64,000 nucleotides of DNA from Candidatus Limnocylindria bacterium (GCA_035524955.1 DATLFG010000042.1:45791-109790), one strand, 5' to 3'. Shown: positions 11,293 to 34,068, counted from the first letter of the stretch. Numbers and translations: made by a program. Notes: a model not told the origin generated them from the letters alone.

Positions 11293-13218
11293 ATGTCCAC
11301 CGTCCTGGCCAAGCCCCCGACCGCCGAGCCGAAGGCGGCCCCATCCGCGGCCGAGATGGGCGCCCGCCAGCGGGAGATCTCGGTCTCCGAGTTCTTCACC
11401 AAGAACCGCCACCTGCTCGGCTTCGACAATCCGCGCAAGGCCCTCCTCACCTGCGTCAAGGAGGCGGTGGACAACGCGCTCGACGCCGCCGAGGAGGCCG
11501 GCATCCTGCCCGAGGTCGTCGTCACGCTCGAGGTCGCGGCAAACGGCGAGGCGGCAGCGCCGGCCAGCCAGGCGACCCGCTTCCGGGTCACGGTGATCGA
11601 CAACGGTCCCGGCATCGTCCGCCAGCAGATCCCGCCCATCTTCGCCAAGCTCCTCTACGGCTCGAAGTTCCACCGGCTGCGCATGAGCCGCGGCCAGCAG
11701 GGCATCGGCATCTCCGCGGCGGGCATGTACGCCCAGCTCACGACCGGCAAGCCGGTGCAGATCACCTCGAGCACCGGGGCGCGGGCCGCGACGCACTACT
11801 TCGAAGTCCAGATCGACACCAAGAAGAACGAGCCGAGGATCTTCGAGAGCAAGAAGATCGACTGGGACCACCCGCGGGGCACGCAGGTGACGCTCGAGAT
11901 CGAGGGACGCTACCAGAAAGGCCGCGCCTCGGTGGACGAGTTCCTCGAGCAGGTGGCCATCGCCAATCCGCACGTGAGGCTCGTCTACCATGCGCCGGAG
12001 GGGGAGACCCGGCACTACCCGCGGACGATCCAGGAGCTGCCGCCGCAGCCCCGGGAGATCAAGCCGCATCCCTACGGCATCGAGTTCGGCGTGCTCCTCC
12101 GGATGCTCCACGACACCCGGAGCCACTCGCTCTCGGGCTTCCTCGCCGGCGACTTCAGCCGAGTCTCCCCGGCCGTCGCGGTGGAGATCTGCAAGACGGC
12201 CAAGCTCTCGGCGGACGCGCGGCCGCGCAACGTCCACGGCGACGCCGCCGAGGCACTCTACAAGGCCATTCAGGCGACCCGCATCATGGCGCCGCCCTCG
12301 AACTGCATCTCGCCCATCGGCGAGAAGGCGATCCTCCACGGCCTCTACAAGCAGATCAAGGGCGAATTCTACACCGCGGTGACCCGGCCCGCGGCCGTGT
12401 ACCGGGGCAACCCGTTCATCATCGAAGCGGGCCTGGCGTACGGGAAGGGTCCGGACCAGGTGGCGGTCACCCCGGACGCGGCCGCGGTCCCGCTCGCGGA
12501 AGGCGAGCAGCGGGAGGACGACAACGAGCTGGCCCGGGTCATTCGGTACGCCAATCGCGTCCCCCTGCTCTACCAGCAGTCGGCCTGCGCGACCTTCAAG
12601 GCGGTGCTCGAGACCGCCTGGCGCAACTACGGGGTGGCCCAGTCCCGGGGCGCGCTCCCGGCCGGCCCCATGGTGGTGTTCGTCCACATGGGCTCGGTCT
12701 GGGTGCCGTTCACCAGCGAGTCCAAGGAAGCGATCGCCGACTACGACGAGATCCGGAAGGAGATCAAGCTCGCGCTGCAGGAGTGCGGGCGCCGACTCGG
12801 CATGTTCCTGCGGCGGCGCGAGCGGGCCAAGAGCGAGTTTCGCCGGCGCAACATCTTCGAGCTGTACATCGAGGAGGTCGTCGAGGCCTGCGGCCGGCTG
12901 AAGGGCGGTAAGCTGGCCAAGGAGAAGCTCAAGGCCCAGCTCCAGAAGATCGCCCTGAAGCGCACCGGCGGTCCCCGGACCGACGCGATCCTGGGTCACG
13001 AGGGCGGTCCGGAAGGCCTCCCCCACTCGATCATCGTCACCGCCGACGGGCCGGAAGGGGAGGCGCCGGCATTGCCCGGCGCCGAGGGGAGCGCTGTTGC
13101 GCCGCCCGAAGAGGCCCGGCCGGAGAAGACCAAGCCCGCGCCCGCGCGACGGAAGGGCAAGGGCAAGGCCAAGGCGGCAAAGCCCAAGACCAAGGCGCCA
13201 AAGCGCAGGAAGAGGTAG
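11293..13218 (+). CDS. top6B: DNA topoisomerase VI subunit B (GHKL ATPase)
   Basis: 'FFTKNRHLLGFDNPRKALLTCVKEAVDNALDA' Bergerat ATP-binding fold, 'TVIDNGPGI', 'GQQGIGISAA'. Directly followed by top6A. Start ATG at 11293 with an AAGGAAGG RBS. Lys/Arg-rich C-terminal tail. Confidence 0.85.
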   Translation: MSTVLAKPPTAEPKAAPSAAEMGARQREISVSEFFTKNRHLLGFDNPRKALLTCVKEAVDNALDAAEEAGILPEVVVTLEVAANGEAAAPASQATRFRVTVIDNGPGIVRQQIPPIFAKLLYGSKFHRLRMSRGQQGIGISAAGMYAQLTTGKPVQITSSTGARAATHYFEVQIDTKKNEPRIFESKKIDWDHPRGTQVTLEIEGRYQKGRASVDEFLEQVAIANPHVRLVYHAPEGETRHYPRTIQELPPQPREIKPHPYGIEFGVLLRMLHDTRSHSLSGFLAGDFSRVSPAVAVEICKTAKLSADARPRNVHGDAAEALYKAIQATRIMAPPSNCISPIGEKAILHGLYKQIKGEFYTAVTRPAAVYRGNPFIIEAGLAYGKGPDQVAVTPDAAAVPLAEGEQREDDNELARVIRYANRVPLLYQQSACATFKAVLETAWRNYGVAQSRGALPAGPMVVFVHMGSVWVPFTSESKEAIADYDEIRKEIKLALQECGRRLGMFLRRRERAKSEFRRRNIFELYIEEVVEACGRLKGGKLAKEKLKAQLQKIALKRTGGPRTDAILGHEGGPEGLPHSIIVTADGPEGEAPALPGAEGSAVAPPEEARPEKTKPAPARRKGKGKAKAAKPKTKAPKRRKR

Positions 13219-13224: not shown

Positions 13225-14331
13225 ATGGCGCGCGCAAAGGCGAAGAAGATCGGAGCCGTCGAGAAGAAGCTCATCAGCGTGGCGGACGCGGTGATCACCG
13301 CCGCCGATCGCAGCAAGGACCCCATGCTGTCGATCCCCGTGCGCAGCCTCGCCAACGTCAACTTCAACGAGAAGCGCGGCATCATCGAGATGGGCAAGCG
13401 CAAGCAGGAGCGCACGTTCTTCAACGTGAGCATGGCGAAGAAGTTCATGCAGACGGTGCTGGTGGCCGACGCCCTGTCCGAGCTGCAGCGGGCCGACCTC
13501 ACGACGTCGCTGCGCGAGATCTACTACCGCACCAAGCACACCATGAAGGACTCGAACGAGAACACGTTCGACAACCAGAACGAATCCGACCCGCTGATCG
13601 AGGACCTCGAGGTCTCGCTGGCCGCGCTGCGCGAAGAGCTCCACGTGCGTGCCGAGAACGCGGGCAGCATCGTGGGGCCCGTCGTCTTCGGCGACGACGG
13701 CGACCGGGTGGACTGCGCGCGCCTCGGCAAGGGCGGTTACTCGGTCCCGTCCATCGTCGAGCCCGACTTCATCGAGATCCGCCGCTGCACCGCCGACTTC
13801 GTCCTGCTCGTCGAGAAGGGCACCCAGTGGAACCGCCTCTCGGAGGATAAGTTCTGGCGCCGGTACAACTGCGTGCTGCTCACCGGGAACGGTCAGCCGC
13901 CCCGCGGAGTCCGGCGCCTGGCGCGCCGCCTGCACGAGGAATACAAGATCCCGGTGTACGTCCTCGTGGACAACGACCCCTGGGGCTACTACATCTACTC
14001 GGTCGTCAAGCAGGGCTCGATCAACCTCGCGTTCGAGAGCGAGCGGATGGCCATCCCCAAGGCCAAGTTCATCGGCCTCTCGAGCGCCGACCCCGACCGC
14101 TACGGCCTCCCCCGCAACGTGGGCATCAAGCTCAACGACAAGGACATCAGCCGCGCCAAGGAGCTGCTCAAGTACCGCTGGCTTCAGAAGAAGCCCTGGC
14201 AGGAAGAGATCAAGCGGATGCTCGCGAGCGGCCTCAAATATGAGCTCGACGCGCTCGCCAACAAGGACTTCCGCTACCTGACCAAGACCTACCTGCCGCG
14301 GAAGCTCAAAGAGGAAGACTGGCTGGACTAG
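13225..14331 (+). CDS. top6A: DNA topoisomerase VI subunit A (Spo11-like, 5Y-CAP + Toprim)
   Basis: Catalytic Tyr motif 'SLREIYYRT'. Toprim 'FVLLVEKGTQWNRL...CVLLTGNGQPPRGVRRLARRL...VYVLVDNDPWGYYIYS'. Confidence 0.9.
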   Translation: MARAKAKKIGAVEKKLISVADAVITAADRSKDPMLSIPVRSLANVNFNEKRGIIEMGKRKQERTFFNVSMAKKFMQTVLVADALSELQRADLTTSLREIYYRTKHTMKDSNENTFDNQNESDPLIEDLEVSLAALREELHVRAENAGSIVGPVVFGDDGDRVDCARLGKGGYSVPSIVEPDFIEIRRCTADFVLLVEKGTQWNRLSEDKFWRRYNCVLLTGNGQPPRGVRRLARRLHEEYKIPVYVLVDNDPWGYYIYSVVKQGSINLAFESERMAIPKAKFIGLSSADPDRYGLPRNVGIKLNDKDISRAKELLKYRWLQKKPWQEEIKRMLASGLKYELDALANKDFRYLTKTYLPRKLKEEDWLD

Positions 14332-14360
14332 CGCTCGGCCCCGCATGCCCCCGTCCACCA
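14232..14360 (+). repeat. Direct repeat copy 1: 3' end of top6A plus ~30 nt downstream
   Basis: About 90% identical over ~130 nt to 23643-23772, including the stop codon. Both copies share 'gagctcgacgcgctcgccaac.aggacttccgc.acctgaccaagacctacctgccgcggaagctcaa.ga.ga.gactggctggactagcgctc.gccccgcat.cccccgt'. Confidence 0.7.
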
Positions 14361-15025
14361 TCAGCGTGGTCGCAGTGACGAAGCGCGACGACCCGGATCC
14401 GGCGCCGCGCCGCCTCCCGGGCGACTGTGCGCATGAGTCCGACCTGGGCGTGCTTGGCCGTCACGTAGGCGACCGAGCCCGGCGCGCCCATGGCCCCGAC
14501 GACGCTGGAGGTGATGATGACGCTGCCGCCATCGTTCATGCGCGGGAGCCCGTACTTGCAGGCGAGGAAGGCCCTGCGCACGTGCACGGCGAGAAGCGCG
14601 TCGAAGGCGTCCTCGGGATACTCGGTCACGGGGACCACCGGGCCCTGGTTGCCGGCGTTGCTGAAGGACACATCGAGCGGGCCGAAGCGCGCGACGGTCC
14701 GCTCGATGTAGCCACGCGCCCCCGTCGCCTGGCTGACGTCCGCGGCGACGGCGTCGACGTGCGGGCTGGCGAGGTCGGCGACCGTGCGCGCGAGCGCGGC
14801 GCCGTCGAGGAATAACGTCGGCTTCAGTTCACGGACCAGAACCGGCCACCGACATCGCTTCTTCCCGCTGACTCGTGCGCCGGCCTTCAGCTCGTCAGCG
14901 TGAAGCGAGCGGTACTCGCGAGGGCTGGCCCCCGGAAGCGCACGGCGCGGCGGGCCCGCCGGCCGCCGGCGGGGGCCCTGCGGGCGATCACCGGCCCGAG
15001 AGCAGACCCCACTCCTGGGCTCTGA
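14306..15025 (-). pseudogene. SDR-family gene fragment lacking the N-terminal Rossmann motif and the normal C-terminus
   Basis: The minus-frame reading 'ALARTVADLASPHVDAVAADVSQATGARGYIERTVARFGPLDVSFSNAGNQGP...GGSVIITSSVVGAMGAPGSVAYVTAKHAQVGLMRTVAREAARRRIRV' is collinear with the intact SDR at 8683-9573. The TGxxxGxG N-terminus is absent and the C-terminus diverges and overlaps the top6A stop. Confidence 0.5.
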
Positions 15026-15100
15026 TCACCGCCTTGACCCGCGTATCCACCCCCAGGGCGTCGAAGATGGCCTTCAGGTGGGCCTTGGCCGTCCGCTCGC
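14988..15100 (-). pseudogene. Fragment of a LuxR-type HTH (C-terminal half only)
   Basis: 'AEIAEGPGISERTAKAHLKAIFDALGVDTRVKAVIRAQEWGLL' matches the second half of the LuxR/GerE HTH. No receiver or sensor domain lies upstream. Confidence 0.35.
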
Positions 15101-15198
15101 TGATCCCCGGGCCCTCGGCAATCTCGGCGTGCGCTCCGGGAACTCCTCGGCGACCACGGTGAGGTGGCGCCGGCGGCCCCACCGATGCCGAGGGCCAG

Positions 15199-15813
15199 AT
15201 GCCCGGCATGCGGCCGATCACCAAGCGGCTGGTTCACGGCCGGGACCACGGGGTGGCCCTCCTGGCCGAGGGTCTCCTCGTGGATCCGGGAGACCCCGGC
15301 GAGAAGCTCGACCCGCAGACGCTGGGGTCGGTGGAGCGCGACGCCTACGGAAACGTGCGCCCGGAAGAGCTGGAGCTGGCGCGGCTGCTCAAGACGCGGG
15401 TGGCGGCGAGCCTGGCGGCGCGGGGTATCGGGACCGGCATCGTGGCCAAGGATCTCGGCTACGAGCTCCGCTGCGCCCCGCCGGGTGGGTTCGACATCCA
15501 GTACTGCCGGAGCCTCGGCTACTGGGCCACACGCTTCCTGCTCGACGGCGGCACCGAAGCGCTGGCGACGATCCAGGGCGGCCGGCTGGTTCCGATCCCG
15601 TTCGGGGATCCACTCGACCCGACGACGGGCAAGATTCGCTTTCGCTACGCGGACATCCACTCGGAGGCGTACCGGACGCTCCACGCTTACATGATCCGCC
15701 TCAAACGTGAGGACTTCGAGCGGCCCGAGCAGCGGGAGGCTCTCGCTCGGGCCGCCAAGCTGAGCGAGCCGGAGTTCGTCCACCGTTTCGGATACGTCGC
15801 CGGCTACGGCTGA
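15199..15813 (+). pseudogene. 3' fragment of a pyrophosphate/ATP-dependent 6-phosphofructokinase gene
   Basis: 204 aa: 'IVAKDLGYELRCAPPGGFDIQYCRSLGYWATRFLLDGGTEALATIQGGRLVPIPFGDPLDPTTGKIRFRYADIHSEAYRTLHAYMIRLKREDF' resembles the C-terminal ~200 aa of PFK (group III/PPi type). The N-terminal ~150-200 aa are absent upstream. Confidence 0.5.
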
Positions 15814-16117
15814 GGAGAATGCCCGAGCGAGCATGCGCCACAGAACCGCGACGGTCCGGATGGCAACCACAAGCTACCCACGGGTGGCTCGGATGAACAA
15901 CCTCCTGACACTTCACACCCCAGTCGCCTCAGCAGGTTGATCACGTACCGGGCGGCGTTGGATCAACCGCCCGCTCCCAGCTTGTCTCGAGCCTGGCATC
16001 CGCATCCGCCCTCGGCTTAGAAGTGCACCTCAGGGACCTGCGACGAATTCAGACCAAGTTCCAGTGATACATAGTCGTTGATTACGAGGCAACCGGCGAC
16101 CCGCCGCGCTTCGATGC

Positions 16118-16792
16118 CTAACGGGCTTCTACCAAGGCGCTCAACTCGGCACTCGATCCAGGCAGCAGCTCCGAGGCGGGGGCCAGATAGACGCTGCCGG
16201 GGCGAGTGTTGCGGGTGATCAGCGCACCTGCGCCAACAATGCAGCCGGCAGCGACCGTCACACCCGCCCTCACCGTGGCGTTGGCGCCGATGATGCAGTA
16301 GGGCTCAACGGTAGAATCCCCCAAGACCACACTATGCGGCCCCAGAAAGCAGTGATCCTGGATTTCCGTATGGTGACCCACAACACTTCCGGTCTCGATC
16401 ATCACGTTGCTTCCGATACGCGCGAATGGCTTTATCACCACGTTCTCGTAAACAAAACAGTTCTCCCCGACCACCGCTTCCGGCCATGTCACGGCCCGGG
16501 AGCTCACGTAGCTCACGAGTCGGTAGCCTTTAGCCTGCGCCTGCTGAAACTTCTCCGCACGCAGTTGGTTGACTCTCTTCAGACCGATGGGAACCGCCAT
16601 CAGATACTCCTCCGGCGGATATTGTTGAGCGATCTCTTCAAACGGAACCACGGGACAGCCCTGCAACTCAGGCTGCCTTATGTACGCCCGGTCCACGGTA
16701 AACGCAGCGACTTCGTGGGGTGAATCGTGACTCAGGTAGAAGTGATTCATCTCCGCGAAAGGCTCGTTGCCGAAAATCACAACCTTGCTCAT
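16118..16792 (-). CDS. Hexapeptide-repeat acyltransferase, NeuD/PglD-like sugar N/O-acyltransferase family
   Basis: 224 aa. N-terminal alpha/beta domain followed by a left-handed beta-helix with hexapeptide repeats '(I/V)G.N..I...' such as 'IGSNVMIETGSVVGHHTEI', 'LGDSTVEPYCIIGANATV', 'GCIVGAGALI'. The start ATG overlaps the NRPS stop (ATGA). Confidence 0.7.
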   Translation of the reverse strand: MSKVVIFGNEPFAEMNHFYLSHDSPHEVAAFTVDRAYIRQPELQGCPVVPFEEIAQQYPPEEYLMAVPIGLKRVNQLRAEKFQQAQAKGYRLVSYVSSRAVTWPEAVVGENCFVYENVVIKPFARIGSNVMIETGSVVGHHTEIQDHCFLGPHSVVLGDSTVEPYCIIGANATVRAGVTVAAGCIVGAGALITRNTRPGSVYLAPASELLPGSSAELSALVEAR

Positions 16793-19700
16793 TCCCGAGC
16801 CCCCTCGTTGTCAGCCGCCAGCAAGAATGCCGCCAGCTTGTCGACGGTAGAATAGCGAAATAGATCCGCGATTGCGACCGGCCGGTCTACGAGCGGGCTG
16901 ATACGCCGGTGCAACTGTATGGTTAGCAAAGAGTGTCCGCCGAGGTCGAAAAAATCGTCGTGAACGTCGACCCGGGGAACACCCAATACTTCCTGCCAGA
17001 TCGAAACGAGTTGCTGCTCCAGACCGCCAAGGCGCTCGGACGGAACGGCCCCCAGCTCAACGACTGGGACCGGAGTCGCGCCCGGCGGTGGAAGCGCTTT
17101 GCGGTCGATCTTCAAGTTGGGCGTTAGCGGGAATTCGCGGATTTCGACGAAGTGCGACGGCACCATGATCTCGGGCAGCTTTGCGCGAAGATGGTCGCGC
17201 AGCTCTATCACCGGGACACCGGCGGATCCGTTAGGCGTCACATACGCGACCAGGCGCTTGTCCCCGGGAGTATCTTCACGCGCCAGCACCACGGACTTGC
17301 CGACACCAGGGTGCCCGTCGAGCAGGGCTTCGATCTCGCCGAGCTCGATGCGATAGCCGCGCAGCTTCACCTGGCCGTCGCTCCGGCCCAGAAATTCGAC
17401 ATTGCCGTCGGAGCGATAGCTCGCCACGTCACCGGTCCGGTAGAGGCGTCCGTCAGAACCGCCGAATGGGTCGCTCACAAACCGGTCGGCGGTCAGATCG
17501 GGCCGCTTCCAATATCCGCGAGCAACCCCCTTCCCGCCGATGTACAAGTCACCCGCCGTGCCGATGGGTACCAACTGCATGCGGTGGTCAAGGATGTACA
17601 TAGCGGTGTTGGCGATCGGCCGTCCGATGGGAATCGTGGTCTCGTTGCCGGTAACCGTATAGGTGGACGACCAGACCGTGGTTTCCGTGGGGCCATACAT
17701 GTTGATCAGCTTCCCGAGTACAAGCTCTCCCAGATCCTGGGCCTGTGTTGCGGGAAGCGCCTCGCCCCCCACCATCATCACCCTCAAGCCGCGCAGGGCC
17801 AGACGCGACTCCCGATCGGCGGTCAACAGACCGGCCATTGACGGGGTGCACTGCAGATGCGTCACCTTGTGGCGGGCGATCAGGGCCGGGATGGCCGACT
17901 GCCCCGCCGTTTGCACCGGAACGTCAGCGGCGAGCCTCCGCAAGCGATTCAGATGCTCCAGATGCTGAAACGCGGTTGAGGAGGCAACCCCGAAGTCGAT
18001 CAGGCAGGCAAGCTCATCGATGCCGATTCCCTTCAATCGATGAACCATCGCGAGGCAGGTCTCGACCGTCCCGAATAGTCCGCTCGTCTCGAAGTACCGA
18101 TCGAAGGCGTGGTTCAGGATGCCAGACTTCTCCTCTGGCGTGAGGCTCTGTGCAGCAAACATCTGGCTGAGGGTTTGCCCCGTTGCAGAGGCGCGCTCCT
18201 TGAACGCCGGGAACGACCAGGCGGCCTGCTCGGTCAGATCCAGCGCGCTGGCCAGGTAGTCAATCATCGGCTCACGCACGACTTCGCGCACCTGACCATC
18301 ATCGTCGCCGACGAAGGTATGCAGCATCAGCGTCACGTAGCCATCGCCCGGATGCCCGTGTTCCCGCCACGCTTTACGGTAGATGGAGAGCTTCTCGGCC
18401 AGTTGCTCCACACCTTGCCCCAACAGGTGGGTGAGAATCCGGAAGCCTCCGGTGCCCGCCCTGCGAAACGTCTCCGGGTTTCCCGCCACTGTGACCCAGA
18501 CCGGCAACTCGGCTTGAACGGGCCGAGGCAGGGTCCGCACTTCAACCTCTTTGTGGTCGGGGCCGGGAAAGCGGATCGTTTCCCCCCGCCACAGCCGGCG
18601 GACAGTCTCGATACCGCGAAACATCGTATCCTGCCGGTTGGCGTACTGCTCCGGTTGCAGCACGAAGTCGTTCGGCTGCCAGCCGGAGGCAAACGAGATC
18701 CCGACGCGGCCACCGGAAATGTTGTCTACGACCGACCATTCCTCGGCGATCCGGATGGGGCTGTGCAAGGGAGATACGCAGCTACCCGCGCGGAGGCCGA
18801 TCGATTTCGTGATCGACGCCAGAGCGGCGCTGGTGACAGACGGATTGGGATACAATCCGCCAAACGCACCGAAGTGCCGTTCCGGTGTCCATACCGCGGC
18901 GAAGCCATTCTGGTCGGCGAACTTGGCCCCTTCGAGCAGGAGAGCGTACTTATTGGCGGCGTTCTCTCCTTCGTCGCTGGCGAAATAGAACAGGCTGAAG
19001 TCGATGCCGGCCGCTCGAGTTCCCCTCTCCGTGCCACCGTGGAGGATTACCTTGAACCCACGCGCCATGGTCCAAAACAACTCCAGCACCGAGATGTCGA
19101 AGGAGAGGCTGGTCACCGCCAGCCAGGTCCCCGGTGGACTGTGCGGAATACAATCATCCATTCCCGCGAAGAGGTTCGTGACGTTGCGGTGCTCGACCAT
19201 CACACCCTTGGGCCTGCCGGTGGACCCCGACGTATAAATGACATAGATCAAGTTACTGCCAGTCACGCCGCTGTCCAGATTGTCCTCGGGTTCCCGTTCG
19301 ATGCTCCCCCAGTCAGTGTCGATGCAGACGATCTTCGCGCGATGAGGAGGCAGCCGGTGGAGCAGACCTTGTTGCGTCAGTAGAATCGCGCACCGGGCGT
19401 CTTCGACCATCAACGCCAGCCGGTCCGCGGGATAGGCGGGATCGAGCGGAACATACGCCGCGCCGGCTTTGAGAATCCCGTAGACGCCCGTCAGCAGATC
19501 GATCGAGCGTTCCACGCAAATACCGACGAGCACTTCAGGTCCTGCGCTCAAGTTCCGCAGGTGTCGGGCCAGTTGGTTGGCCGCGCGATTCAGCTCGTCG
19601 TAGGTCCGCCGTTGGTCTCCACAGACCAGGGCTACCGCGTGCGGGGTCCGCTTCACCTGTTGCTCGAAGAGTTCGTGAACGCTCGCGTCGACCGGATACG

Positions 19701-21351
19701 CCTTGTGAGTGGCATTCCACGTTACCAGGAGCCGTTCGCGTTCAGCGTCCGTGAGGATGGGGACGCCCGCTAGAGGCGCGTCGAGATGTGCCGCCAGGTG
19801 CTGCAGGAATGCCGTGAAGGCGCGCTGGAGTTCGAGAATATGAGCCTGGCCGAAGACCGAGGTCCGATAGGTCCAATGACTCGTGCATCCGTCGCGCGAC
19901 ACAGCGATCGTCAGGTCGTTATCCGCGGCGTTCTCTGGTTCGTCCCGTTGAAGGATCCCGATCGGCAGCCGCATGGCCCGGCCGGCCAGTTCCGGAGTGC
20001 GAGCTACCAGGGAACGCGCATACGTCTGATTGGCTCGGGCGCTCTCCAGGTCGTTCAGCACGGCACGCAGTGCAGCGTCCACGCTGGCGTCACCGTCCAA
20101 TGTGACGCGCACCGGGACCTGAAGAGCGAAGAATTGCTCAAGACCCGACAGCGACTCCTCCAAGCCGACGTGTCCGAAGCCGATATCAAAGGAAGTGTGT
20201 CCTGTGGTCCGCGCCAGGTACAGAATCAACGCTGCTGTCAGGACATCCACGGGTTCGCCCGCCGCGGTGGGGACCGGCGGGACGGAGAGGGCCGCCGTCC
20301 CACGAGACTCCACTCCTTGCGTGCTCGCGCCCCGGCCCTCGGAGGGAAGTTCCAGGGGTGCAAGCTGCAGGAGGCGCTGCAGCCAGAATTCCTCGTGCCG
20401 GACGATACTCTGACCTAGCTGCGTGAGAGTTACTGCGGTACCCGCTGGGAGCGCCTCGAAGCGGTAGCCGGCAGTAATCCCAGCCGTGGCGACGTCCAAC
20501 GCCTCTCCACCGATGTCGAGCAACTGAGAAACTACAACTTGATTGGTCGACGTGGCCACACGAACGGAATTACCGTCGACAGATAGCACCGTACCCGGCG
20601 GGCTCTCAGAGAATGCCGGCAGCACCTCCAGCTTCGGCACGAGAAGCACGGTTTCGCCGCTGATCACCTTTGGAATCTCGAGGGGATTCGGATAAGGGCG
20701 GAAGTCGAGGGAACGCACAAAGGCGGCTATTGTTTCGGCGGGCAGGCTCCAGTCGATGCAAGCCTGGGCCGCGGGCCGCGCGTGCTTCGCAAAATACGTT
20801 CGCTCGGAAAGGCTCTGCGGGAGGGCTCGAAGCGTCCCATCGCCCAAGGCTTTGATCAGCTCCTCAAAGGAATCGATTCCGGCCTTGAAGCATTTGCGAT
20901 TCAGCGTAAACGCCGTTTCATCGGGAGCGAGCGCAAAGAAACGCTGCTGGAAAATGTCGCCTGTATCCACGATCTCTCGCATCTCGTGCCAAGTGACGCC
21001 GTGGGACGTCTCCTGATTGAGGATGGCCCACGTGGTGGCGTGCAAACCGGCGTATCTCGGCAACGGACCATCGTGAAAATTAATGGCGCCAAAACGAGGC
21101 AGCGCCAAGATCCGAGCCGGAACGAGGGATAGGTTGGCAATACTGAACAGGTAATCGAAGGGCCGACCATCCATCGAAGAGAGAACTTCGTCCTGGCGGG
21201 AGACACAACGGATCTTCTGTTCTTGGGCCCATTCTTGGATCACATCGTTGGCGGACACGATGATCTCTATCTTGTGCTTGTAGCGAAGAAGAATCTCCGC
21301 GCAGGGGATCAGAAGAGCTCCCTCCCCCAGAATGAGCGTGCTGAATGTCAT
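16789..21351 (-). CDS. Single-module non-ribosomal peptide synthetase: formyltransferase domain, partial (C-terminal) condensation domain, adenylation domain with inserted luciferase-like monooxygenase domain, thiolation domain
   Basis: aa ~1-290 resemble Fmt N- and C-domains ('HDGPLPRYAGLHATTWAI'). aa ~290-560 resemble the post-C3 half of a C domain ('EFWLQRLLQLAPLELPSEG', 'LTDAERERLLVTWN') with no HHxxxDG. A domain motifs: A1 'TYDELNRAANQLA', A2 'LKAGAAYVPLDP', A3 'YTSGSTGRPKG', A4 'SFDIS', then a ~340-aa LLM domain ('IDFSLFYF...ALLLEGAKFADQNGFAAVWTPERHF...SGGRVGISFASGW'), then A5 'NMYGPTETT', A7 'YRTGD', A8 'GRSDGQVKLRGYRIELGEIE', A10 'PNLKIDRKAL'. PCP 'FFDLGGHSLL'. There is no TE, R or C-terminal C domain. 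Confidence 0.9.
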   Translation of the reverse strand: MTFSTLILGEGALLIPCAEILLRYKHKIEIIVSANDVIQEWAQEQKIRCVSRQDEVLSSMDGRPFDYLFSIANLSLVPARILALPRFGAINFHDGPLPRYAGLHATTWAILNQETSHGVTWHEMREIVDTGDIFQQRFFALAPDETAFTLNRKCFKAGIDSFEELIKALGDGTLRALPQSLSERTYFAKHARPAAQACIDWSLPAETIAAFVRSLDFRPYPNPLEIPKVISGETVLLVPKLEVLPAFSESPPGTVLSVDGNSVRVATSTNQVVVSQLLDIGGEALDVATAGITAGYRFEALPAGTAVTLTQLGQSIVRHEEFWLQRLLQLAPLELPSEGRGASTQGVESRGTAALSVPPVPTAAGEPVDVLTAALILYLARTTGHTSFDIGFGHVGLEESLSGLEQFFALQVPVRVTLDGDASVDAALRAVLNDLESARANQTYARSLVARTPELAGRAMRLPIGILQRDEPENAADNDLTIAVSRDGCTSHWTYRTSVFGQAHILELQRAFTAFLQHLAAHLDAPLAGVPILTDAERERLLVTWNATHKAYPVDASVHELFEQQVKRTPHAVALVCGDQRRTYDELNRAANQLARHLRNLSAGPEVLVGICVERSIDLLTGVYGILKAGAAYVPLDPAYPADRLALMVEDARCAILLTQQGLLHRLPPHRAKIVCIDTDWGSIEREPEDNLDSGVTGSNLIYVIYTSGSTGRPKGVMVEHRNVTNLFAGMDDCIPHSPPGTWLAVTSLSFDISVLELFWTMARGFKVILHGGTERGTRAAGIDFSLFYFASDEGENAANKYALLLEGAKFADQNGFAAVWTPERHFGAFGGLYPNPSVTSAALASITKSIGLRAGSCVSPLHSPIRIAEEWSVVDNISGGRVGISFASGWQPNDFVLQPEQYANRQDTMFRGIETVRRLWRGETIRFPGPDHKEVEVRTLPRPVQAELPVWVTVAGNPETFRRAGTGGFRILTHLLGQGVEQLAEKLSIYRKAWREHGHPGDGYVTLMLHTFVGDDDGQVREVVREPMIDYLASALDLTEQAAWSFPAFKERASATGQTLSQMFAAQSLTPEEKSGILNHAFDRYFETSGLFGTVETCLAMVHRLKGIGIDELACLIDFGVASSTAFQHLEHLNRLRRLAADVPVQTAGQSAIPALIARHKVTHLQCTPSMAGLLTADRESRLALRGLRVMMVGGEALPATQAQDLGELVLGKLINMYGPTETTVWSSTYTVTGNETTIPIGRPIANTAMYILDHRMQLVPIGTAGDLYIGGKGVARGYWKRPDLTADRFVSDPFGGSDGRLYRTGDVASYRSDGNVEFLGRSDGQVKLRGYRIELGEIEALLDGHPGVGKSVVLAREDTPGDKRLVAYVTPNGSAGVPVIELRDHLRAKLPEIMVPSHFVEIREFPLTPNLKIDRKALPPPGATPVPVVELGAVPSERLGGLEQQLVSIWQEVLGVPRVDVHDDFFDLGGHSLLTIQLHRRISPLVDRPVAIADLFRYSTVDKLAAFLLAADNEGARE

Positions 21352-21878
21352 AGGATTGCCGCCTTGACCACTGCCAGGATCACCAAGATGCTAGCCGGGA
21401 TGTACTGGCCACCACCCCGGCACCCCTGCTGGCATAGACCTCGAGGCCGCCGTGCGTGATGTGCGAGCCACGGGCCGGCTCCAGTGCCTGGCGTGATCAG
21501 CGTGGCGGTGATGCCCTGAAGGGGGCTGATAGTGCTACGGATAGATCTGGCTACCACGATGAACCGGGCACGCACAGACACCCTCCAGCGAAGGCCCTAC
21601 TGCCTCTCCTCAGAGGGCGTGGAGCGCGAGTATAAGCGGAGCGGGCGGGAGGAGCAAGGGCTGAACCGGCAACAGCGGCTTTTCAAGACGGCGGGCGTCT
21701 GATCCGACATGCCCGGTCCTTCACCCTGCAGGTGGCCGAAAGCCAGCTGGCGCTGACTCTCTTTCAACAGATCATCGGGCGCCTCGAACGACTCGCATGG
21801 GATCCGACGTGACCGAGCGGACTGTCCAGACGGGGAGCAGGTGCGGCGCCGGCGGGAGTGCCAGCACGGCGGGCGCAG
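21352..21878 (-). promoter_or_regulatory. Long (~525 nt) non-coding leader/promoter region upstream of the NRPS gene
   Basis: No convincing ORF between the NRPS start (21351) and the upstream acetyltransferase stop (21879). Only short off-frame ORFs are present. Confidence 0.25.
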
Positions 21879-22505
21879 TTAAGGCCGGGTTTGGGAAGGA
21901 ATCGGCCGTGCCGGCACACCGACGACCGTCGTGGCTGGCTCGACATTCTTGGTAACCACGGCACCCGCGCCCACAACCGCCCAATCGCCGACATGTAACC
22001 CGGGAAGCACGATGCTCCCGAGCGCAAGGAAGACGCCTTCACCGATCGACGCGCCACCGCCGAGGTGCGCAACAGCGATATGGGCATAGTCGCCGACGTG
22101 GCAGTGATGGTCGACGCTCGCTTTGGTGTTCAAGATGACGTGAGCACCGATGCAGGCGCCGGCTTGGACGATGCCGCCGGCAAACACGACGCTGCCAGGG
22201 CCTAGGGTCACATCCGGATGGACCGAAGAGAATGGATGCACCGCGGTTGTCCACTCGATCTCGATCTCGTGGCTGATGCGTTTGCGCACGTGATTGTCAC
22301 CGACGCCGATGATGGCGCGCGTGCAGGTGGAATCACGCACAGCCGCGATCGGCCCGCGGATGGGAACGCCCAAGACGTTGTTTCCCCAATTCTTGGGCGA
22401 GTCATCGAAGAGTGCGACGACCTTCCGGCCCATCGCATGCAGAGTGGCGACGACCACCGCCGCGTGCCCCCCTGCGCCAAGAACCGCGATGCGCTCGTCA
22501 GCCAC
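21879..22505 (-). CDS. PglD/NeuD-family hexapeptide sugar N-acetyltransferase-like protein
   Basis: 208 aa. N-terminal 'IAVLGAGGHAAVVVATL' Rossmann-like domain typical of PglD/NeuD, then hexapeptide beta-helix 'IGAHVILNTKASVDHHCHVGDYAHIAVAHLGGGASIGEGVFLALGSIVLPGLHVGDWAVVGAGAVV'. Confidence 0.7.
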   Translation of the reverse strand: MADERIAVLGAGGHAAVVVATLHAMGRKVVALFDDSPKNWGNNVLGVPIRGPIAAVRDSTCTRAIIGVGDNHVRKRISHEIEIEWTTAVHPFSSVHPDVTLGPGSVVFAGGIVQAGACIGAHVILNTKASVDHHCHVGDYAHIAVAHLGGGASIGEGVFLALGSIVLPGLHVGDWAVVGAGAVVTKNVEPATTVVGVPARPIPSQTRP

Positions 22506-22748
22506 GGCGCGACCTTACTCGCCCTCTGACACCAAAACAAGAGACAGATATGCGAATCTACCGGGAGGACTTCCATCGCTCTCCTGAACCGATACCGTTC
22601 GGCTCTTGCCGGAGCCAGTTTGCCGAGGTGGGGGATGACCTCGATCCTGCCCAGCTCGAAGCTTCCCGGACCTCATTCAGCGTCACCTGCGCCCCTCGGG
22701 GTTCAACGTTGACGAGCACACCAAAAAGCGCGTAGCATCCATCCCACA

Positions 22749-23564
22749 ATGCGGTATGCTTCACTACCTATCGACGAAGTTCATCTCTGGTGCGCGCACC
22801 CCAGTGAGCTCAACCGCGACGACGTTTACGACGTCGCTCGACATATGATCACTTCAGAAGAGGCTCAGCGGCTGGAGCGCTTCTGCTTCGCTCGGGACCG
22901 ACAGACTTATCTGGCAACTCGTGTTCTCGTCCGTACGGTACTTTCCCGGTACGAGCCACTGGCGCCGGCTGCTTGGCGATTCATCGTCGGACAGTACGGC
23001 CGCCCAGAGATCGTACACGATCAACCAGCGCTCCATTTTAATCTCTCTCACACCAATGGGCTTGTCGTCTGTGCCGTCGCCCGAGATCTTGATGTCGGAG
23101 TCGATGTCGAACACATCGGCCGCCCAGCGCCTCTTGAGGTCGTCGATCATTTTTTCGCGCCCACGGAGATCGCGGCCTTGCGCGCGCTACCGGACGCTGA
23201 GCAGCAGCGCCGATTCTTCGATTACTGGACACTCAAAGAAAGTTACATCAAGGCTCGGGGCTTGAGCCTAGCGCTGCCCGTCGATCGCTTTGCCTTCACG
23301 CTCTCGGCGGACGGCAAAGCGAACCTCAGAATAGATCCCGCGCTTGGGGAAGGTGCACCATGGCAATTTACTCGGCATTGGCCAACCTCCGAACACATAG
23401 TTTCCGTGTGCGTGACACGTCGCCGCGACGAGGACGCGAAGATCATCCTCGGATGGCACTCGTTGGCCAGATCAATCGCGGACAGCGGCCACGAGGGCGC
23501 AACCCATTTCACAAGCTGGTCGAGGCCGCCGAACAAGGTCTCGATCTCCGATGCGGTATTGTAG
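22749..23564 (+). CDS. Sfp-type 4'-phosphopantetheinyl transferase
   Basis: 'FNLSHTNG', 'VGVDVE', 'FFDYWTLKESYIKARG' are the signature motifs of Sfp/EntD-type PPTases. Divergent from the upstream acetyltransferase gene. Confidence 0.8.
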   Translation: MRYASLPIDEVHLWCAHPSELNRDDVYDVARHMITSEEAQRLERFCFARDRQTYLATRVLVRTVLSRYEPLAPAAWRFIVGQYGRPEIVHDQPALHFNLSHTNGLVVCAVARDLDVGVDVEHIGRPAPLEVVDHFFAPTEIAALRALPDAEQQRRFFDYWTLKESYIKARGLSLALPVDRFAFTLSADGKANLRIDPALGEGAPWQFTRHWPTSEHIVSVCVTRRRDEDAKIILGWHSLARSIADSGHEGATHFTSWSRPPNKVSISDAVL

Positions 23565-23642
23565 ATGGAGGCTGAGGCGCGCAGCACCTCTCCACTGGTG
23601 CAGCTGTCAGCCACAGGCTGTGCGCACGTGCATGCTCGCGTC

Positions 23643-23772
23643 CGGCCCCAAGTACGAGCTCGACGCGCTCGCCAACGAGGACTTCCGCGACCTGACCAAG
23701 ACCTACCTGCCGCGGAAGCTCAAGGAAGAGGACTGGCTGGACTAGCGCTCAGCCCCGCATACCCCCGTTCGC
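23643..23772 (+). repeat. Direct repeat copy 2: displaced or duplicated top6A 3' end (last ~31 codons plus stop plus ~30 nt)
   Basis: Encodes 'KYELDALANEDFRDLTKTYLPRKLKEEDWLD*' against top6A 'KYELDALANKDFRYLTKTYLPRKLKEEDWLD*'. The post-stop sequences are also similar: 'tagcgctc(g/a)gccccgcat(g/a)cccccgt'. Confidence 0.7.
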
Positions 23773-23783
23773 CCCGACTGCCC

Positions 23784-24560
23784 TCAAGGCCGCACGGCGG
23801 GCGAGTCGATGGTCATCCCTCTCGCTCGCCACATCAGGAACACCTCGAGGTCCACGAACTCGCGACCCCCATACTCGTACGGCTCCGCCCGCATCCCGAC
23901 CATGCAGTTGCGTAACCGCCGCTGGAGCGAGCCCAGCCCCTGCCACTCCAGCCGGTAGAGCGGATACCCCGTCGGGTGCCCCTGCGGGATCACGTTCCCG
24001 GCGAGCCGCCGCCCCCAGTGGTCGTCATGACACTGACTGCACGCCAGATTGAGCTGCCCCTGCCGCCGATAGAACGTAGCGCGTCCGGCATCGACGAACG
24101 CCTGCATCCGCGGGTCGACGACCCGGTTGATCGGCATCCCGCGCGACTGCCGCGCGACGAAGGCGGCCAACGCCAGCAGATCGCGACCCTCCCAGGCCAG
24201 CCGCGGCGCCTGCTGCCGGTCGACCCGGCAGCGGTTGATCCGCTGCTCGAGGTTGACCGGCCGTCCCATCCCCGCGTCGAACGCCGGATGCCGCGCCGCC
24301 ACGCCCTTCATGCTGGTCCGAGCATCGCCATGGCAGTCCGCGCAGGCCCGTCCCGCCGCCCCGACCTTCCGCCCCCACAGCGACTCGCCCTCGAGCACCC
24401 AGAGCATCCCGGGATTCGCGGTGTCGTCGTCCTGCATCGCCCGCGTCTCCCGGCTCATGAAGTCGTACCCCGCCCGGCGCTCGCCCAGGGGGATCTCGCC
24501 GGCCGGGGCCGACGCCGCTACCACCACGATACCGAACAGCGCGGCCCCCACGAGCCGCAC
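23784..24560 (-). CDS. soxA: Diheme cytochrome c SoxA (thiosulfate oxidation)
   Basis: Signal peptide, two CxxCH motifs ('CADCH', 'CSQCH'), ~258 aa. Adjacent to the soxZ, soxY and soxX homologues. Confidence 0.7.
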   Translation of the reverse strand: MRLVGAALFGIVVVAASAPAGEIPLGERRAGYDFMSRETRAMQDDDTANPGMLWVLEGESLWGRKVGAAGRACADCHGDARTSMKGVAARHPAFDAGMGRPVNLEQRINRCRVDRQQAPRLAWEGRDLLALAAFVARQSRGMPINRVVDPRMQAFVDAGRATFYRRQGQLNLACSQCHDDHWGRRLAGNVIPQGHPTGYPLYRLEWQGLGSLQRRLRNCMVGMRAEPYEYGGREFVDLEVFLMWRARGMTIDSPAVRP

Positions 24561-24564
24561 GCGG

Positions 24565-24909
24565 CTAGCTGACCGTGATGGCCGCCGACTCCGTCACCGA
24601 GAAGCCGTTGTCGCCGGTCCAGGTGAAGGTCAGTGTGCCGCTCTCGGTGGCGACGGTCGAGAACACGAGGAACGGATTGGCGGCGATCGCCGGATGCAGG
24701 TCGGCGCGAAAGACCTCGGCGCCGTTGTAGGTGCAGACGAACTGCCGGATGATGTCGCGGGCGATCGGCGCGCCGGCCTCGGTGCGGCGGTGACCGGTCT
24801 CCATGACGTGGGAGATCAGCGTCTTGATCTCGATGATCTCGCCGCGCCTGGCCTGGCCCGGGACGTTGATCAGCGCGCGCGCCACGGCTAGAGGGGCCCT
24901 TCCAGGCAC
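24565..24909 (-). CDS. soxZ: Thiosulfate oxidation carrier complex protein SoxZ
   Basis: 114 aa with a SoxZ-like beta-sandwich sequence ('IIEIKTLISHVMETG', 'FTWTGDNG'). Overlaps the soxY-like gene by ~20 nt. Confidence 0.7.
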   Translation of the reverse strand: MPGRAPLAVARALINVPGQARRGEIIEIKTLISHVMETGHRRTEAGAPIARDIIRQFVCTYNGAEVFRADLHPAIAANPFLVFSTVATESGTLTFTWTGDNGFSVTESAAITVS

Positions 24910-25352
24910 GCGGCCAGGGTGACCACGACGGTGGCGCGATCCGACCAGAACGAGCCGTCGCTCAGCTCGCCGATGGCGACGACGGTCTGCGTGTTGGCGA
25001 GCCGGACGCGGGTCGACACGCGCGCCCGGCCGGAGCGGGGGCTGAAGCGGAACGTGGCGACGTCGGGCAGCGGGTTGATCTCGGTGAAGACGTGGACGGC
25101 CCGGACGTGGTCGGCCTCGGTCATCGGGCTCTCGACGCTGACCGTCAGCGGGACGGCGTGGCCGTTCTCGGACAGCGGGGGCAGCTCGAGCTTCACCCGG
25201 CCCGGCGTGACGGGGGCGGAGCCCACCACCCGGCGGATGGCGGCCTGCATCCGCTCGGGGGTCGCCCCGGTGGGGCGAACGGCGACGATCGACACCAGGC
25301 CGAGCCCGGCGCCGGCGGTCCGGAGGAACGCGCGGCGGTCCATGTCTGTCAC
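24888..25352 (-). CDS. soxY: Thiosulfate oxidation carrier protein SoxY
   Basis: Tat signal 'RRAFLRTAGAGLGL', ~154 aa with a C-terminal Cys-containing tail ('VTLAACLEGPL'). Position between soxX and soxZ. Confidence 0.65.
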   Translation of the reverse strand: MTDMDRRAFLRTAGAGLGLVSIVAVRPTGATPERMQAAIRRVVGSAPVTPGRVKLELPPLSENGHAVPLTVSVESPMTEADHVRAVHVFTEINPLPDVATFRFSPRSGRARVSTRVRLANTQTVVAIGELSDGSFWSDRATVVVTLAACLEGPL

Positions 25353-25816
25353 TCTCGCAGCGTCGTCAAGAAGGCGACCACGTCCTCGATCTGCTCGGCG
25401 GTCAGCACGGGCTTGCCGCGGAACGCGGGGGCGACCCGTGTCAGGCCGTCGGTCCGATGATACGCCGGCATGATCGTCGCCGGGTTGACCCGGGCGGGAT
25501 CGACGATCCGCTGGCGGATCTGCGCCTCGGACAGCCGGCTGCCGACGCCGGCCAGGTTGGTGGCCAGCTCACCCTGGAAGCGTTCCTCCGGGAACGGCCC
25601 GCTGTGGCAGAGCAGGCAGAGTCCGACCTGGCGGTCGGCGACGATCGCCCGGCCGCGCGCCGGATCGCCTGGGGCGCCGGTGAGCGACTCCGGGATCCCG
25701 TCCCGTCCGTGCGCCACACCGGCCACCAGGCAGCTCATCGCGACGAGGGCGGCGGCGGCCGCGCGCCGTGGGGTTGGCGCCGCCCGGCCCGGCCCGGTCC
25801 GCCCGTCTCTCACCAT
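25349..25816 (-). CDS. soxX: Monoheme cytochrome c SoxX
   Basis: Single 'CLLCH' heme motif and a hydrophobic N-terminus ('MSCLVAGVAHG'). The listed ORF (to 25954) has a GC-rich, Arg-rich N-terminal extension that is probably not translated. Confidence 0.55.
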   Translation of the reverse strand: MVRDGRTGPGRAAPTPRRAAAAALVAMSCLVAGVAHGRDGIPESLTGAPGDPARGRAIVADRQVGLCLLCHSGPFPEERFQGELATNLAGVGSRLSEAQIRQRIVDPARVNPATIMPAYHRTDGLTRVAPAFRGKPVLTAEQIEDVVAFLTTLRE

Positions 25817-25823
25817 GGGTGAC

Positions 25824-27098: not shown

Positions 27099-27379
27099 CT
27101 CTGTCCCGCGTACCAGGCCGCGATGGCCCGGATCTCGTCGTCCGTGAATCCCTTGGCGATCCGGTCCATGACGGTGCCCGGGCGCTGCCCCGAGCGGAAC
27201 TCCTGCATGGCCTTCACGATCGCGGCCTGGTCGACCCCGAGCAGCCGCGGCACGGGCGTGGTCACGCGCGCCGAGGTCGCGTGACACCCCGAGCACGAGA
27301 CGGCGCCGGCCGGAGGCTCGGCCGACGCGGTCGCCGCGATCGAGGCGACCCCGATCGCAGCGACCAGGAGCCTCCCCAT
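27095..27379 (-). CDS. Cytochrome c subunit of flavocytochrome c sulfide dehydrogenase (FccA/SoxE-like)
   Basis: 94 aa with a signal peptide and a single 'CSGCH' heme motif. Immediately upstream of the flavoprotein gene. Confidence 0.6.
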   Translation of the reverse strand: MGRLLVAAIGVASIAATASAEPPAGAVSCSGCHATSARVTTPVPRLLGVDQAAIVKAMQEFRSGQRPGTVMDRIAKGFTDDEIRAIAAWYAGQR

Positions 27380-27386
27380 CCCGGAC

Positions 27387-29564: not shown

Positions 29565-29575
29565 GGCCGCCCCCC

Positions 29576-30025
<450 letters not shown>

Positions 30026-33992: not shown

Positions 33993-34068
<76 letters not shown>

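Follow-up and report, generated by a model that had tools for sequence, protein, structure and literature searches.

Integrases can insert elements into the 3' end of a protein-coding gene and supply a replacement end, as is known for e14 and phage 21 in icd of Escherichia coli and for SCCmec in rlmH/orfX. Gene ends may also be displaced by recombination. During conjugation in E. coli, fragments with one homologous end gave rise to homology-facilitated illegitimate recombination (HFIR), and single-crossover products, in which 109-950 bp of the anchor locus were duplicated, were more common than HFIR events (PMC3240628). For HFIR and the integration of recircularised fragments, PMC5361080 cites de Vries & Wackernagel (2002) and Prudhomme et al. 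(2002). Rhs, CDI, and T6SS loci can carry orphan immunity arrays and orphan 3' ends of genes (Kirchberger et al. 2017, PMC5361080; Jackson et al. 2009, as cited there), and HFIR was proposed as the mechanism (PMC5361080).

This study analyzed a direct repeat of the 3' end of top6A, a topoisomerase VI gene, in a 64,000-nucleotide stretch of DNA (the window) from an uncultivated soil bacterium. Pairwise alignment of copy A (14218-14354) with copy B (23632-23768), both on the plus strand, revealed 125 identical positions out of 137 (91.2%) without gaps in the best ungapped register, and the 60 nt flanking the repeat on each side matched at the chance level (28-32%). The direct repeat of approximately 130 bp described in the original prediction is thus real, although the homology starts approximately 11-14 nt further to the left than had been proposed. 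The two copies share a 34-nt identical core (14276-14309 and 23690-23723), which occurs exactly twice in the window, with none expected on the basis of 100 shuffles; the next-longest direct repeats within the 9-30 kb part of the window are at most 36 nt long, with approximately 75% identity. As detailed below, the second top6A tail is probably an orphaned gene end, located where two alternative versions of the neighbourhood were joined by recombination.

Copy A lies at the end of the intact top6A gene, downstream of top6B. The gene top6B (topoisomerase VI subunit B; 11293-13218, plus strand), identified from its ORF translation (start MSTVLAKPP), forms a conserved left anchor that is colinear with the related contigs L170 and L172 at 91% nucleotide identity, and the Topo-VIb Pfam domains were observed in the L170 orthologue. 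It is followed by an intact top6A of 368 aa (13225-14331, plus strand; Pfam TP6A_N, Topo_VI_alpha, and Toprim, with E-values down to 9e-61), and an identical protein is encoded in four contigs from other samples. Copy A comprises top6A codons 332-368 (from Met332), the stop codon, and the 3' end of a convergent SDR pseudogene (14335-14810, minus strand), which was recognized by Pfam adh_short and by comparison with the intact 252-aa SDR of contigs L083 and L175-L177. Internally, the pseudogene has lost 173 bp at 14389/14390; it is truncated at its 5' end at 14810, and a mutation has removed its stop codon (plus strand TCG, minus strand CGA).

Copy B lies 9.4 kb downstream of the real top6A and consists of an orphan top6A tail, the SDR stop codon, and the last approximately seven SDR codons. 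As had been claimed, it keeps the top6A frame and stop, reading MLASGPKYELDALANEDFRDLTKTYLPRKLKEEDWLD up to a TAG at 23743-23745. The motif after this stop is also shared by the two copies, but it is not anonymous sequence: the final seven codons of the convergent SDR lie here on the minus strand, together with the SDR stop, and the repeated unit is therefore the top6A/SDR junction. The SDR TGA stop (23749-23751, minus strand) is retained in copy B, where the SDR C-terminus ends in ANGGMRG versus VDGGMRG in the intact gene of L083. Of the five changes unique to copy B in 114 coding nucleotides, three are derived amino-acid substitutions (L to P, K to E, and Y to D) at positions that do not vary among the related top6A genes; copy B is therefore a decaying relic. 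A block of three synonymous sites in copy B (AAG GAA GAG) was found in no sampled same-species allele of either locus type described below, and the source allele of copy B therefore lies outside those sampled. This lack of a match counts against the joining of two versions.

The DNA between the copies begins with gene debris. Following the SDR pseudogene, we identified a fragment of a LuxR-type (GerE) helix-turn-helix regulator (15020-15128, minus strand; six-frame Pfam scan, PF00196, E = 8e-4) and a pseudogene fragment corresponding to the C-terminal half of a PPi-dependent phosphofructokinase (PPi-PFK; 15199-15813, plus strand), which matches positions 219-407 of the 407-position NCBIfam profile NF041103 (E = 3e-57) and PDB 9dqm (E = 3e-32). 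The original prediction had included these gene fragments in a candidate insertion. The SDR, LuxR, and PPi-PFK fragments (14334-16086) are also present in same-species contigs from other samples and are decaying chromosomal genes, which does not support that assignment.

The debris is followed by an NRPS-like cluster (cluster N; 16087-23630, minus strand; 61.7% GC), which was delineated through Pfam and NCBIfam matches. It encodes a NeuD-family acetyltransferase (16118-16792, minus), a protein with the order formyltransferase, C-like domain, adenylation domain interrupted by an LLM, and PCP (16789-21351, minus), a PglD/NeuD-like acetyltransferase (21879-22505, minus), and an Sfp-type PPTase (22749-23564, plus), and it ends in a SufS-like C-terminal relic (approximately 23531-23630, minus). 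Beyond copy B, ORF and Pfam analyses delineated segment X (23784-33964, minus strand), containing soxA, soxZ, soxY, soxX, fccB, XDH/aldehyde oxidase subunits, a SARP/AAA regulator, and a cupin gene. Segment X ends at the terminator of tRNA-Lys and lies outside it. The right anchor, identified using ARAGORN (33965-34292, minus strand), comprises tRNA-Lys(ctt), tRNA-Arg(ccg), and tRNA-His(gtg) with a terminator; it is conserved, and colinearity with L172 begins at 33965. Segment X was also considered as a tRNA-targeting island, and this candidate was rejected because no integrase was found in it and no tRNA-Lys fragment was found near 23500-23800.

Comparison with relatives revealed two versions of this locus. 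In the N type, the order is top6BA, the SDR/LuxR/PFK debris (where present), the NRPS-like cluster, and tRNA-Lys. The cluster adjoins top6A in L170 and L172, in the same position and orientation as in the window, and adjoins tRNA-Lys in L172 and L173; colinearity across cluster N is 93-96% for L170, 89-91% for L172, and 97% for L173. None of these three contigs has a second top6A tail within 7-10 kb, and segment X is absent from the window's position in L172 and L173. In the X type, represented by L175-L177 from three samples, top6A, an intact SDR, PEBP, and soxA lie within 1.6 kb, and no NRPS cluster is present; the order is top6BA, SDR, PEBP, and the sox-fccB cluster, the recovered contigs stopping short of the far side of sox. 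The window is colinear with L175-L177 up to 14810 and again from approximately 23770, at 94-95.6% nucleotide identity, and its segment X is 94.5% identical to theirs. These contigs carry approximately 850 bp (the SDR 5' end and the PEBP gene) that is missing from the window, and at the position of the junction between the tail and soxA they have the SDR body, PEBP, and a spacer, totalling approximately 1.5 kb. Both types occur in this Rokubacteria (Methylomirabilota) group and, at least within the ingroup, share the convergent top6A/SDR junction as their starting point.

The window carries both versions in series: an N-type part running from top6BA to the truncated SufS pseudogene, and, from 23630/31, an X-type part that opens at about top6A codon 332-337. 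No relative with exactly this arrangement was recovered outside run SRR8556377. The NRPS homologues form a graded series from 96 to 72% identity within Methylomirabilota, whereas SoxA homologues drop abruptly from 97% to 84% identity, which indicates that the two cargoes differ in their history.

Both edges of copy B are illegitimate. At the left edge (junction at 23623-23631), homology to L170 stops exactly at 23630, inside the SufS relic, which runs on in L170 as DMARALSDSYGVMCRSGYMCAQP. Because copy B thus cuts a pseudogene at an arbitrary point, this edge is an illegitimate junction and not the terminus of an element, and the overlap at the join with top6A is ambiguous by at most 1-5 nt. 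At the right edge, comparison with L175-L177 places a deletion junction between the SDR tail and the soxA 3' flank at 23769-23783, and a single deletion from the X-type order yields exactly the observed junction. The homology between copy A and the X-type locus continues for 450 nt into the SDR, to 14810, which indicates that the 137-nt size of the repeat was set by a later deletion on the copy B side and not by an att site. Copy B retains a functional SDR TGA, as in L083, whereas the stop in copy A is mutated; copy B therefore derives from a locus whose SDR was live, as it is in the X type.

These comparisons suggest the following course of events. DNA of one type may have entered a cell of the other type and been fixed by one homologous crossover, located either to the left, in the top6BA-SDR region, or to the right, in the tRNA region, together with one illegitimate join between the SufS pseudogene that terminates the NRPS cluster and codon 332-337 or so of the X-type top6A. 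The route could have been HFIR of a linear fragment or, topologically equivalent, a single crossover of a recircularised fragment; either would place both cargoes in series and duplicate the top6A/SDR junction in direct orientation. The second SDR body and the PEBP gene would then have been lost in a later deletion of approximately 1.5 kb that left 137 nt, after which the orphan tail presumably decayed. The anatomy of the window agrees with this route in that top6BA, the tail, and the SDR are colinear with the X type to 14810 at 94-95.6% identity, the join at 23630 is non-homologous, and both parental arrangements exist (L170, L172, and L173; L175-L177).

An alternative is that an integrative element, made up of the NRPS cluster and the SDR-PFK debris, entered the top6A 3' end by site-specific insertion and brought a replacement tail, with copies A and B as attL and attR and the integrase since deleted. 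The direct repeats do bracket DNA that X-type relatives are without, top6A is intact while the displaced copy decays, and a 34-nt identical core is present; homologous recombination between diverged alleles gives the same pattern of a 137-nt repeat with a 34-nt core. Pfam searches of all larger ORFs and six-frame scans of 14332-16120 and 21340-22760 revealed no recombinase or transposase remnant, so that the earlier statement that no integrase remains holds at Pfam sensitivity, and neither inverted repeats nor tRNA-type att sites were found. Two further contigs with the NRPS cluster, L171 and L174, have a Phage_integrase gene near it, but a tRNA-Arg gene lies in between, and these contigs contain no top6A sequence.

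The anatomy of the relatives also opposes such an element. L170, L172, and L173 have the cluster without a second tail, and the same repeats do not bound the cluster in any of L170-L174. Since top6A and soxA are only 1.6 kb apart in L175-L177, an empty-like site of the kind sought by comparing orthologous loci does exist; it is not precise, because it has approximately 850 bp extra and its homology to copy A runs 450 nt past the repeat. Accordingly, the proposal that the intervening DNA is an insertion is borne out insofar as that DNA is absent from L175-L177, but there is no precise excision product, and the cluster is resident in L170, L172, and L173. Moreover, the repeat includes the SDR end, and this gene would be split between host and element. 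With its left edge cutting a pseudogene that L170 continues, its right edge set by deletion, and no recombinase, copy B fits the att-site scar originally proposed only in part, and we consider an integrative element unlikely.

Templated duplication in situ would dispense with a second locus version. In this scenario, a replication-based rearrangement (template switching, or filler DNA at a break) would have eliminated the PEBP region beside soxA and copied 137 nt from the resident junction 9.4 kb away. The shortness and direct orientation of copy B, its disregard of gene boundaries, and the non-homologous junctions at both of its edges are consistent with this mechanism. Nevertheless, the ancestral SDR stop and AAGTAC codons, which the resident copy no longer has, are still present in copy B, and its three-site synonymous haplotype occurs in no resident-species allele. 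The 9% divergence between the copies is large compared with the 0.3-3% between strains. The mechanism also needs the sox segment to have been beside the NRPS cluster already, which no relative shows, whereas the X-type order explains the adjacency of the tail and soxA by a single deletion. We therefore regard templated duplication as improbable.

In L008, a contig from another species, top6A is followed 7.2 kb downstream by a weak second relic of its tail. This relic hints that such events recur, as they would under a site-specific process too, and in this respect it counts against the joining of versions and toward an integrative element. However, the relic starts several codons upstream of the start of copy B, and the two left edges do not coincide. 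That the top6A 3' end is a recurrent, sequence-specific docking site in Rokubacteria, with the NRPS-like cluster and debris mobilised by a trans-acting or lost recombinase and carrying a replacement tail, so that copy B and the L008 relic would be successive attR scars, appears quite improbable.

The repeat was also considered as a transposon target-site duplication, a candidate rejected on the basis of its length (137 nt instead of 2-15 bp), the lack of terminal inverted repeats, and the lack of a transposase; the SDR body follows copy A rather than copy B, a topology that does not suit a target duplication. Finally, an assembly artefact merging co-occurring N-type and X-type strains into one contig is highly improbable: both locus types exist in nature and the same-run de Bruijn unitigs (Logan contigs of run SRR8556377; L086 spanning 21600-23719 and L085 spanning 23694-24841) break inside the 34-nt core, but neither the SufS/tail (23630/31) nor the tail/soxA (approximately 23769) junction would arise from merging strains at a shared repeat, both novel junctions are reproduced at 100% identity within the single contigs L086 and L085, respectively, the copy A path (top6A, SDR pseudogene, and debris) was assembled independently in L081 and L082 from other samples, and a 34-nt repeat is shorter than ordinary reads.

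The joining of two locus versions thus remains the most likely explanation, rather than the docking of a mobile element, and the second top6A tail would accordingly be an ordinary scar, a product of ordinary genome plasticity. The locus resembles insertions of the icd and rlmH type in that a direct repeat of a gene 3' end brackets several kilobases while the gene stays intact, and in that the copies differ mostly at synonymous sites, here besides the decay of one copy. Unlike those insertions, it has no recombinase and no precise empty site, its repeat edges arise from an illegitimate join and a deletion, the repeated sequence reaches into the adjacent convergent gene, and relatives without a second copy have the bracketed cluster as a resident at the same position.

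The closer likeness is to HFIR and single-crossover products. In both, one end lies in continuous homology and the other is joined without homology, the insertion is coupled with the loss of recipient DNA, and no dedicated recombinase is needed; in the single-crossover class, an anchor of 109-950 bp is likewise duplicated in direct orientation around the insert. The laboratory inserts are approximately 1-2 kb compared with a cargo of approximately 9-10 kb here, the present event is deduced from comparative anatomy in an uncultivated lineage, and its duplicated segment would have been trimmed later by deletion. Unlike the Rhs, CDI, and T6SS orphans, the present case has a housekeeping-type topoisomerase VI gene as its anchor, metabolic or biosynthetic clusters instead of toxin-immunity modules as its cargoes, and only one displaced copy, with nothing to suggest selection for retaining the orphan. 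The shared features are a conserved upstream gene serving as the recombination anchor, new cargo displacing old cargo downstream, and remnants of the anchor's 3' end left between successive cargoes.

Ungapped alignment in the best register placed the repeat at 14218-14354 (copy A, the 3' end of the intact top6A) and 23632-23768 (copy B, an orphan second copy), with 125 of 137 nt identical (91.2%). The coordinates and the approximate identity of 90% in the original prediction were essentially right, the left edge lying approximately 12 nt further to the left. The 60 nt beyond either repeat edge matched at a background level of 28-32%, and both copies contained an identical 34-nt stretch that was found at no other place and had an expected chance occurrence of 0. 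The resident top6A (13225-14331) carries all three Pfam domains, and copy B preserves both the frame of top6A and its TAG stop codon, as had been read from the sequence. The gene next after top6A, on the opposite strand, encodes a short-chain dehydrogenase (SDR); in the same-species contig L083, it is intact (252 aa) and its stop codon lies 4 nt past that of top6A. The post-stop motif of the original prediction is indeed present in both copies, but it corresponds to approximately the last seven SDR codons plus the SDR stop codon, as read on the minus strand. The SDR C-terminus reads ..VDGGMRG-stop in L083 versus ..ANGGMRG-stop in copy B, with the TGA at 23749-23751, and in 25 other species-level genomes, the region downstream of top6A lacked the motif. 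These findings indicate that the duplicated unit is a piece of the convergent top6A/SDR junction and not a gene end joined to an attachment site.

Copy A is followed by gene debris (segment D, 14334-16086, 70% GC) comprising an SDR pseudogene that lost its stop codon, is truncated at 14810 on its 5' side, and has a deletion of 173 bp, as well as a LuxR-type fragment and a PPi-phosphofructokinase reduced to its C-terminal half. The debris is common to same-species contigs of other samples (L081, L082, and L084; 98.9-99.7%), with small polymorphic indels. At 14389/14390, the SDR of the window is 173 bp shorter than that in L083 and the sox-carrying contig L175; at 15133, L081 and L082 carry an extra 300 bp relative to the window, and at 15556-15626, the window carries an extra 70 bp. 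Decay of the pseudogene debris between top6A and the NRPS-like cluster is ongoing. This cluster (cluster N, 16087-23630, 61.7% GC) encodes two NeuD/PglB-family acetyltransferases, a 1520-aa protein, and an Sfp-type PPTase, and ends with the last approximately 30 codons of a SufS-like gene. The 1520-aa protein contains formyltransferase, C-like (a condensation-like remnant), adenylation, and PCP domains, the adenylation domain being split by a MupA/Atu3671-type luciferase-like monooxygenase. The stretch 16118-23564 is a conserved biosynthetic cluster.

Approximately 15 nt separate copy B from soxA, the start of segment X, which extends to 33964 (71% GC); it contains soxA, soxZYX, fccB, XDH subunits, a SARP-like regulator, and a cupin, and stops at the terminator of a tRNA-Lys/Arg/His cluster. 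The window holds nine tRNA genes in four groups (33993-34292, 46078-46152, 49343-49561, and 53833-54234), of which the group at 33993-34292 is conserved and bounds the variable cargo region on the right. An element of 39-43 nt at 36838-36880 shares 97% identity with a stretch situated 60-100 nt downstream of soxA in contigs L175-L177, has a further match at the orthologous position of contig L172, and may represent a terminator or a small dispersed repeat. When the window was searched for the pattern of an element downstream of soxA in L175, with the query sequence as entered, no match was obtained.

Homologues of the 1520-aa protein on metagenomic contigs, several labelled Methylomirabilota, showed graded identities of 96, 92, 90, 89, and 87% down to 72%; cluster homologues approximately 50% identical occur in Chloroflexota, Acidobacteria, and Burkholderiales (e.g., Piscinibacter and Rhizobacter). 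Three relatives carry cluster N (N type). In L170 (91-96% nucleotide identity), the order is OsmC, top6B, top6A, 273 bp, N, a longer SufS relic, and unrelated genes. L172, a 641-kb contig of approximately 90% identity, shows colinearity with the window to the left and to the right: the left-hand part covers the left flank, top6BA, a SnoaL gene, and N lacking the PPTase, and the right-hand part, 460 bp past N, covers the tRNA-Lys/Arg/His cluster together with the adjoining 9.7 kb of window sequence (33965-43635). L173 (97%), the closest N-type relative, carries the phosphofructokinase pseudogene, N up to window position 23526, and a 43-nt 3' fragment of tRNA-Lys. This fragment (L173:206-248, corresponding to window 33990-34032) abuts the end of N, with unrelated DNA beyond; ARAGORN found no whole tRNA there, and the fragment resembles an attachment-type relic left by an element that had integrated at tRNA-Lys in this strain. 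None of the three relatives carries a second top6A tail. N has therefore long been next to both top6A and the tRNA cluster. The low GC content of N is an old property and not a mark of recent arrival; a recent foreign island was rejected, N being syntenic and 89-97% identical in related genomes. In the related contigs L171 (122-1362) and L174 (2838-4078), a Phage_integrase gene is followed by tRNA-Arg(tct), with N just downstream and top6A absent from both contigs, so N is also found in a second, tRNA-linked context.

SoxA homologues formed a cluster at 97% identity, with the next at 84% and nothing between. Through a member of the 97% cluster, we reached the JGI contigs L175-L177 (94-95.6% identical to the window), in which the order is top6B, top6A, an intact SDR gene on the opposite strand, PEBP, soxA, soxZ, soxY, soxX, and fccB, with top6A and soxA 1.6 kb apart. 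No NRPS cluster was present in these sequences, which span top6B to fccB at most. The window is colinear with them up to 14810 (approximately SDR codon 37) and again from approximately 23770, and subtracting the SDR body and PEBP from their order (approximately 1.5 kb, one deletion) yields the tail/soxA junction of the window. Among the 80 matches listed in a SoxA-anchored search of JGI metagenomes, all at most 82% identical, none had top6A beside soxA. Nucleotide and protein synteny downstream of top6A in 80 species-level genomes revealed nothing conserved past the stop codon, and that set therefore provided no empty site.

We further analyzed the edges and sequence of copy B. The homology of L170 to the window ends exactly at 23630; the SufS frame in L170 extends upstream as ..DMARALSDSYGVMCRSGYMCAQP.., whereas that of the window is cut at ..CAQP and fused to top6A codon 337. 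The left edge of copy B is an illegitimate junction within a pseudogene. Copy B carries five unique changes in 114 coding nt, three of which hit residues invariant across all related top6A (L to P, K to E, and Y to D), and is therefore a decaying relic. An ATG-initiated 64-codon ORF at 23551-23745, antisense of the SufS relic and running into the orphan top6A tail, is, given these replacements, most likely without function. The sequence AAGTAC and the SDR TGA stop are kept in copy B but lost in copy A; copy B therefore originates from a locus whose SDR had not yet become a pseudogene. In copy B, three synonymous sites form a block (AAG GAA GAG) that is shared with L172 and the species-level genomes L003 and L016 and occurs in none of the sampled same-species alleles, pointing to an as yet unsampled allele as the source.

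According to the original prediction, an element had integrated into the 3' end of top6A, with copies A and B as attachment-site scars. The bracketed DNA is missing from the X-type relatives L175-L177, as an empty site would have it, but that site is imprecise because the locus has 850 bp of extra DNA. A weak second tail relic in L008 (approximately 66 nt at approximately 79%, 7.2 kb downstream of its top6A) suggests recurrence; however, this relic and copy B have different left edges. This fragment, at 18250-18325 of L008 (Rokubacteria MAG CAVVOZ010000005.1), is in the same orientation, reads ..DELERMRLSGLRYELDAFATKG.., matches with a tblastn E-value of 5e-4 and 31 of 35 core nt, and lies in a lower-GC stretch close to a nucleotidyltransferase gene; a similar event may have left this tail orphaned as well. 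On the copy A side, homology continues 450 nt beyond the repeat, both edges of copy B are products of non-homologous events, and N occupies the same position in three relatives lacking a second tail. ORF and six-frame scans of the interval, segment X included, revealed no recombinase or transposase, in line with the expectation that no integrase remained. The integrases of L171 and L174 were not counted as part of N, since the tRNA-Arg(tct) gene lies in between and both contigs lack top6A. No tRNA-Lys attachment repeat was present at the far end of the sox segment, and a virus collection gave one unrelated top6A match, no tail patterns, and no provirus link. We consider integration at top6A improbable, retaining it partly on account of the L008 relic; the original interpretation is right in part, in that the bracketed stretch sets the window apart from some relatives in the manner of an insertion. 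Tandem duplication followed by decay in place is disfavoured because copy B holds ancestral states gone from the resident allele. Target-site duplication was rejected, as the SDR body adjoins copy A and not copy B.

Read from the left flank, the window has N-type organisation as far as the truncated SufS relic and X-type organisation starting with top6A codon 337. This arrangement most probably arose by recombination between two alternative locus versions rather than by insertion of a mobile element into top6A. The simplest route would comprise one homologous exchange and one illegitimate join between the two versions, either through homology-facilitated illegitimate recombination of a linear fragment anchored in the top6BA-SDR or tRNA region or, equally, through a single crossover by a recircularised fragment; a 1.5-kb deletion and decay of the orphan tail would have followed. 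The contigs with the exact junctions of the window all derive from a single run (SRR8556377), in which independent unitigs span both novel junctions at 100% identity and end within the 34-nt core; the copy A path was also seen in other samples.

The top6A protein is 94-96% identical to those of MAGs labelled Rokubacteria or Methylomirabilota, and the closest relatives of top6A, the NRPS cluster, and both flanks are contigs so labelled. The SoxA of the window (23784-24560) is identical to HUP35399.1, labelled 'Candidatus Limnocylindria bacterium' (Chloroflexota), and the Limnocylindria label of the MAG looks doubtful. Among the species-level genomes L001-L080, the top6A protein is also 82-86% identical in MAGs labelled Nitrospira, Binatia, 'Deltaproteobacteria', Eisenbacteria, and others, an unusually high conservation across phyla, and the genes flanking top6BA are not conserved; this similarity could reflect horizontal spread of top6BA or mis-binning.

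These findings document that, in soil Rokubacteria, the cargo between top6BA and the tRNA-Lys/Arg/His cluster is replaceable, this slot holding an NRPS-like cluster, a sox (sulfur-oxidation) cluster, or both. Simple homologous recombination between the two direct repeats can remove the NRPS cluster, which could account for its patchy occurrence among close strains. A direct repeat of a gene end may mimic an attachment-site scar although it is a by-product of homology-anchored recombination between locus versions, which calls for caution in genome scans that call integrative elements by repeats alone. No new molecular mechanism is implied, and copy B is a further instance of an already known kind of scar. 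In E. coli, the recircularisation route yields direct duplications of 109-950 bp of the anchor locus (PMC3240628), and a similar anchor-and-displace logic has been proposed for T6SS and Rhs orphan arrays (PMC5361080).
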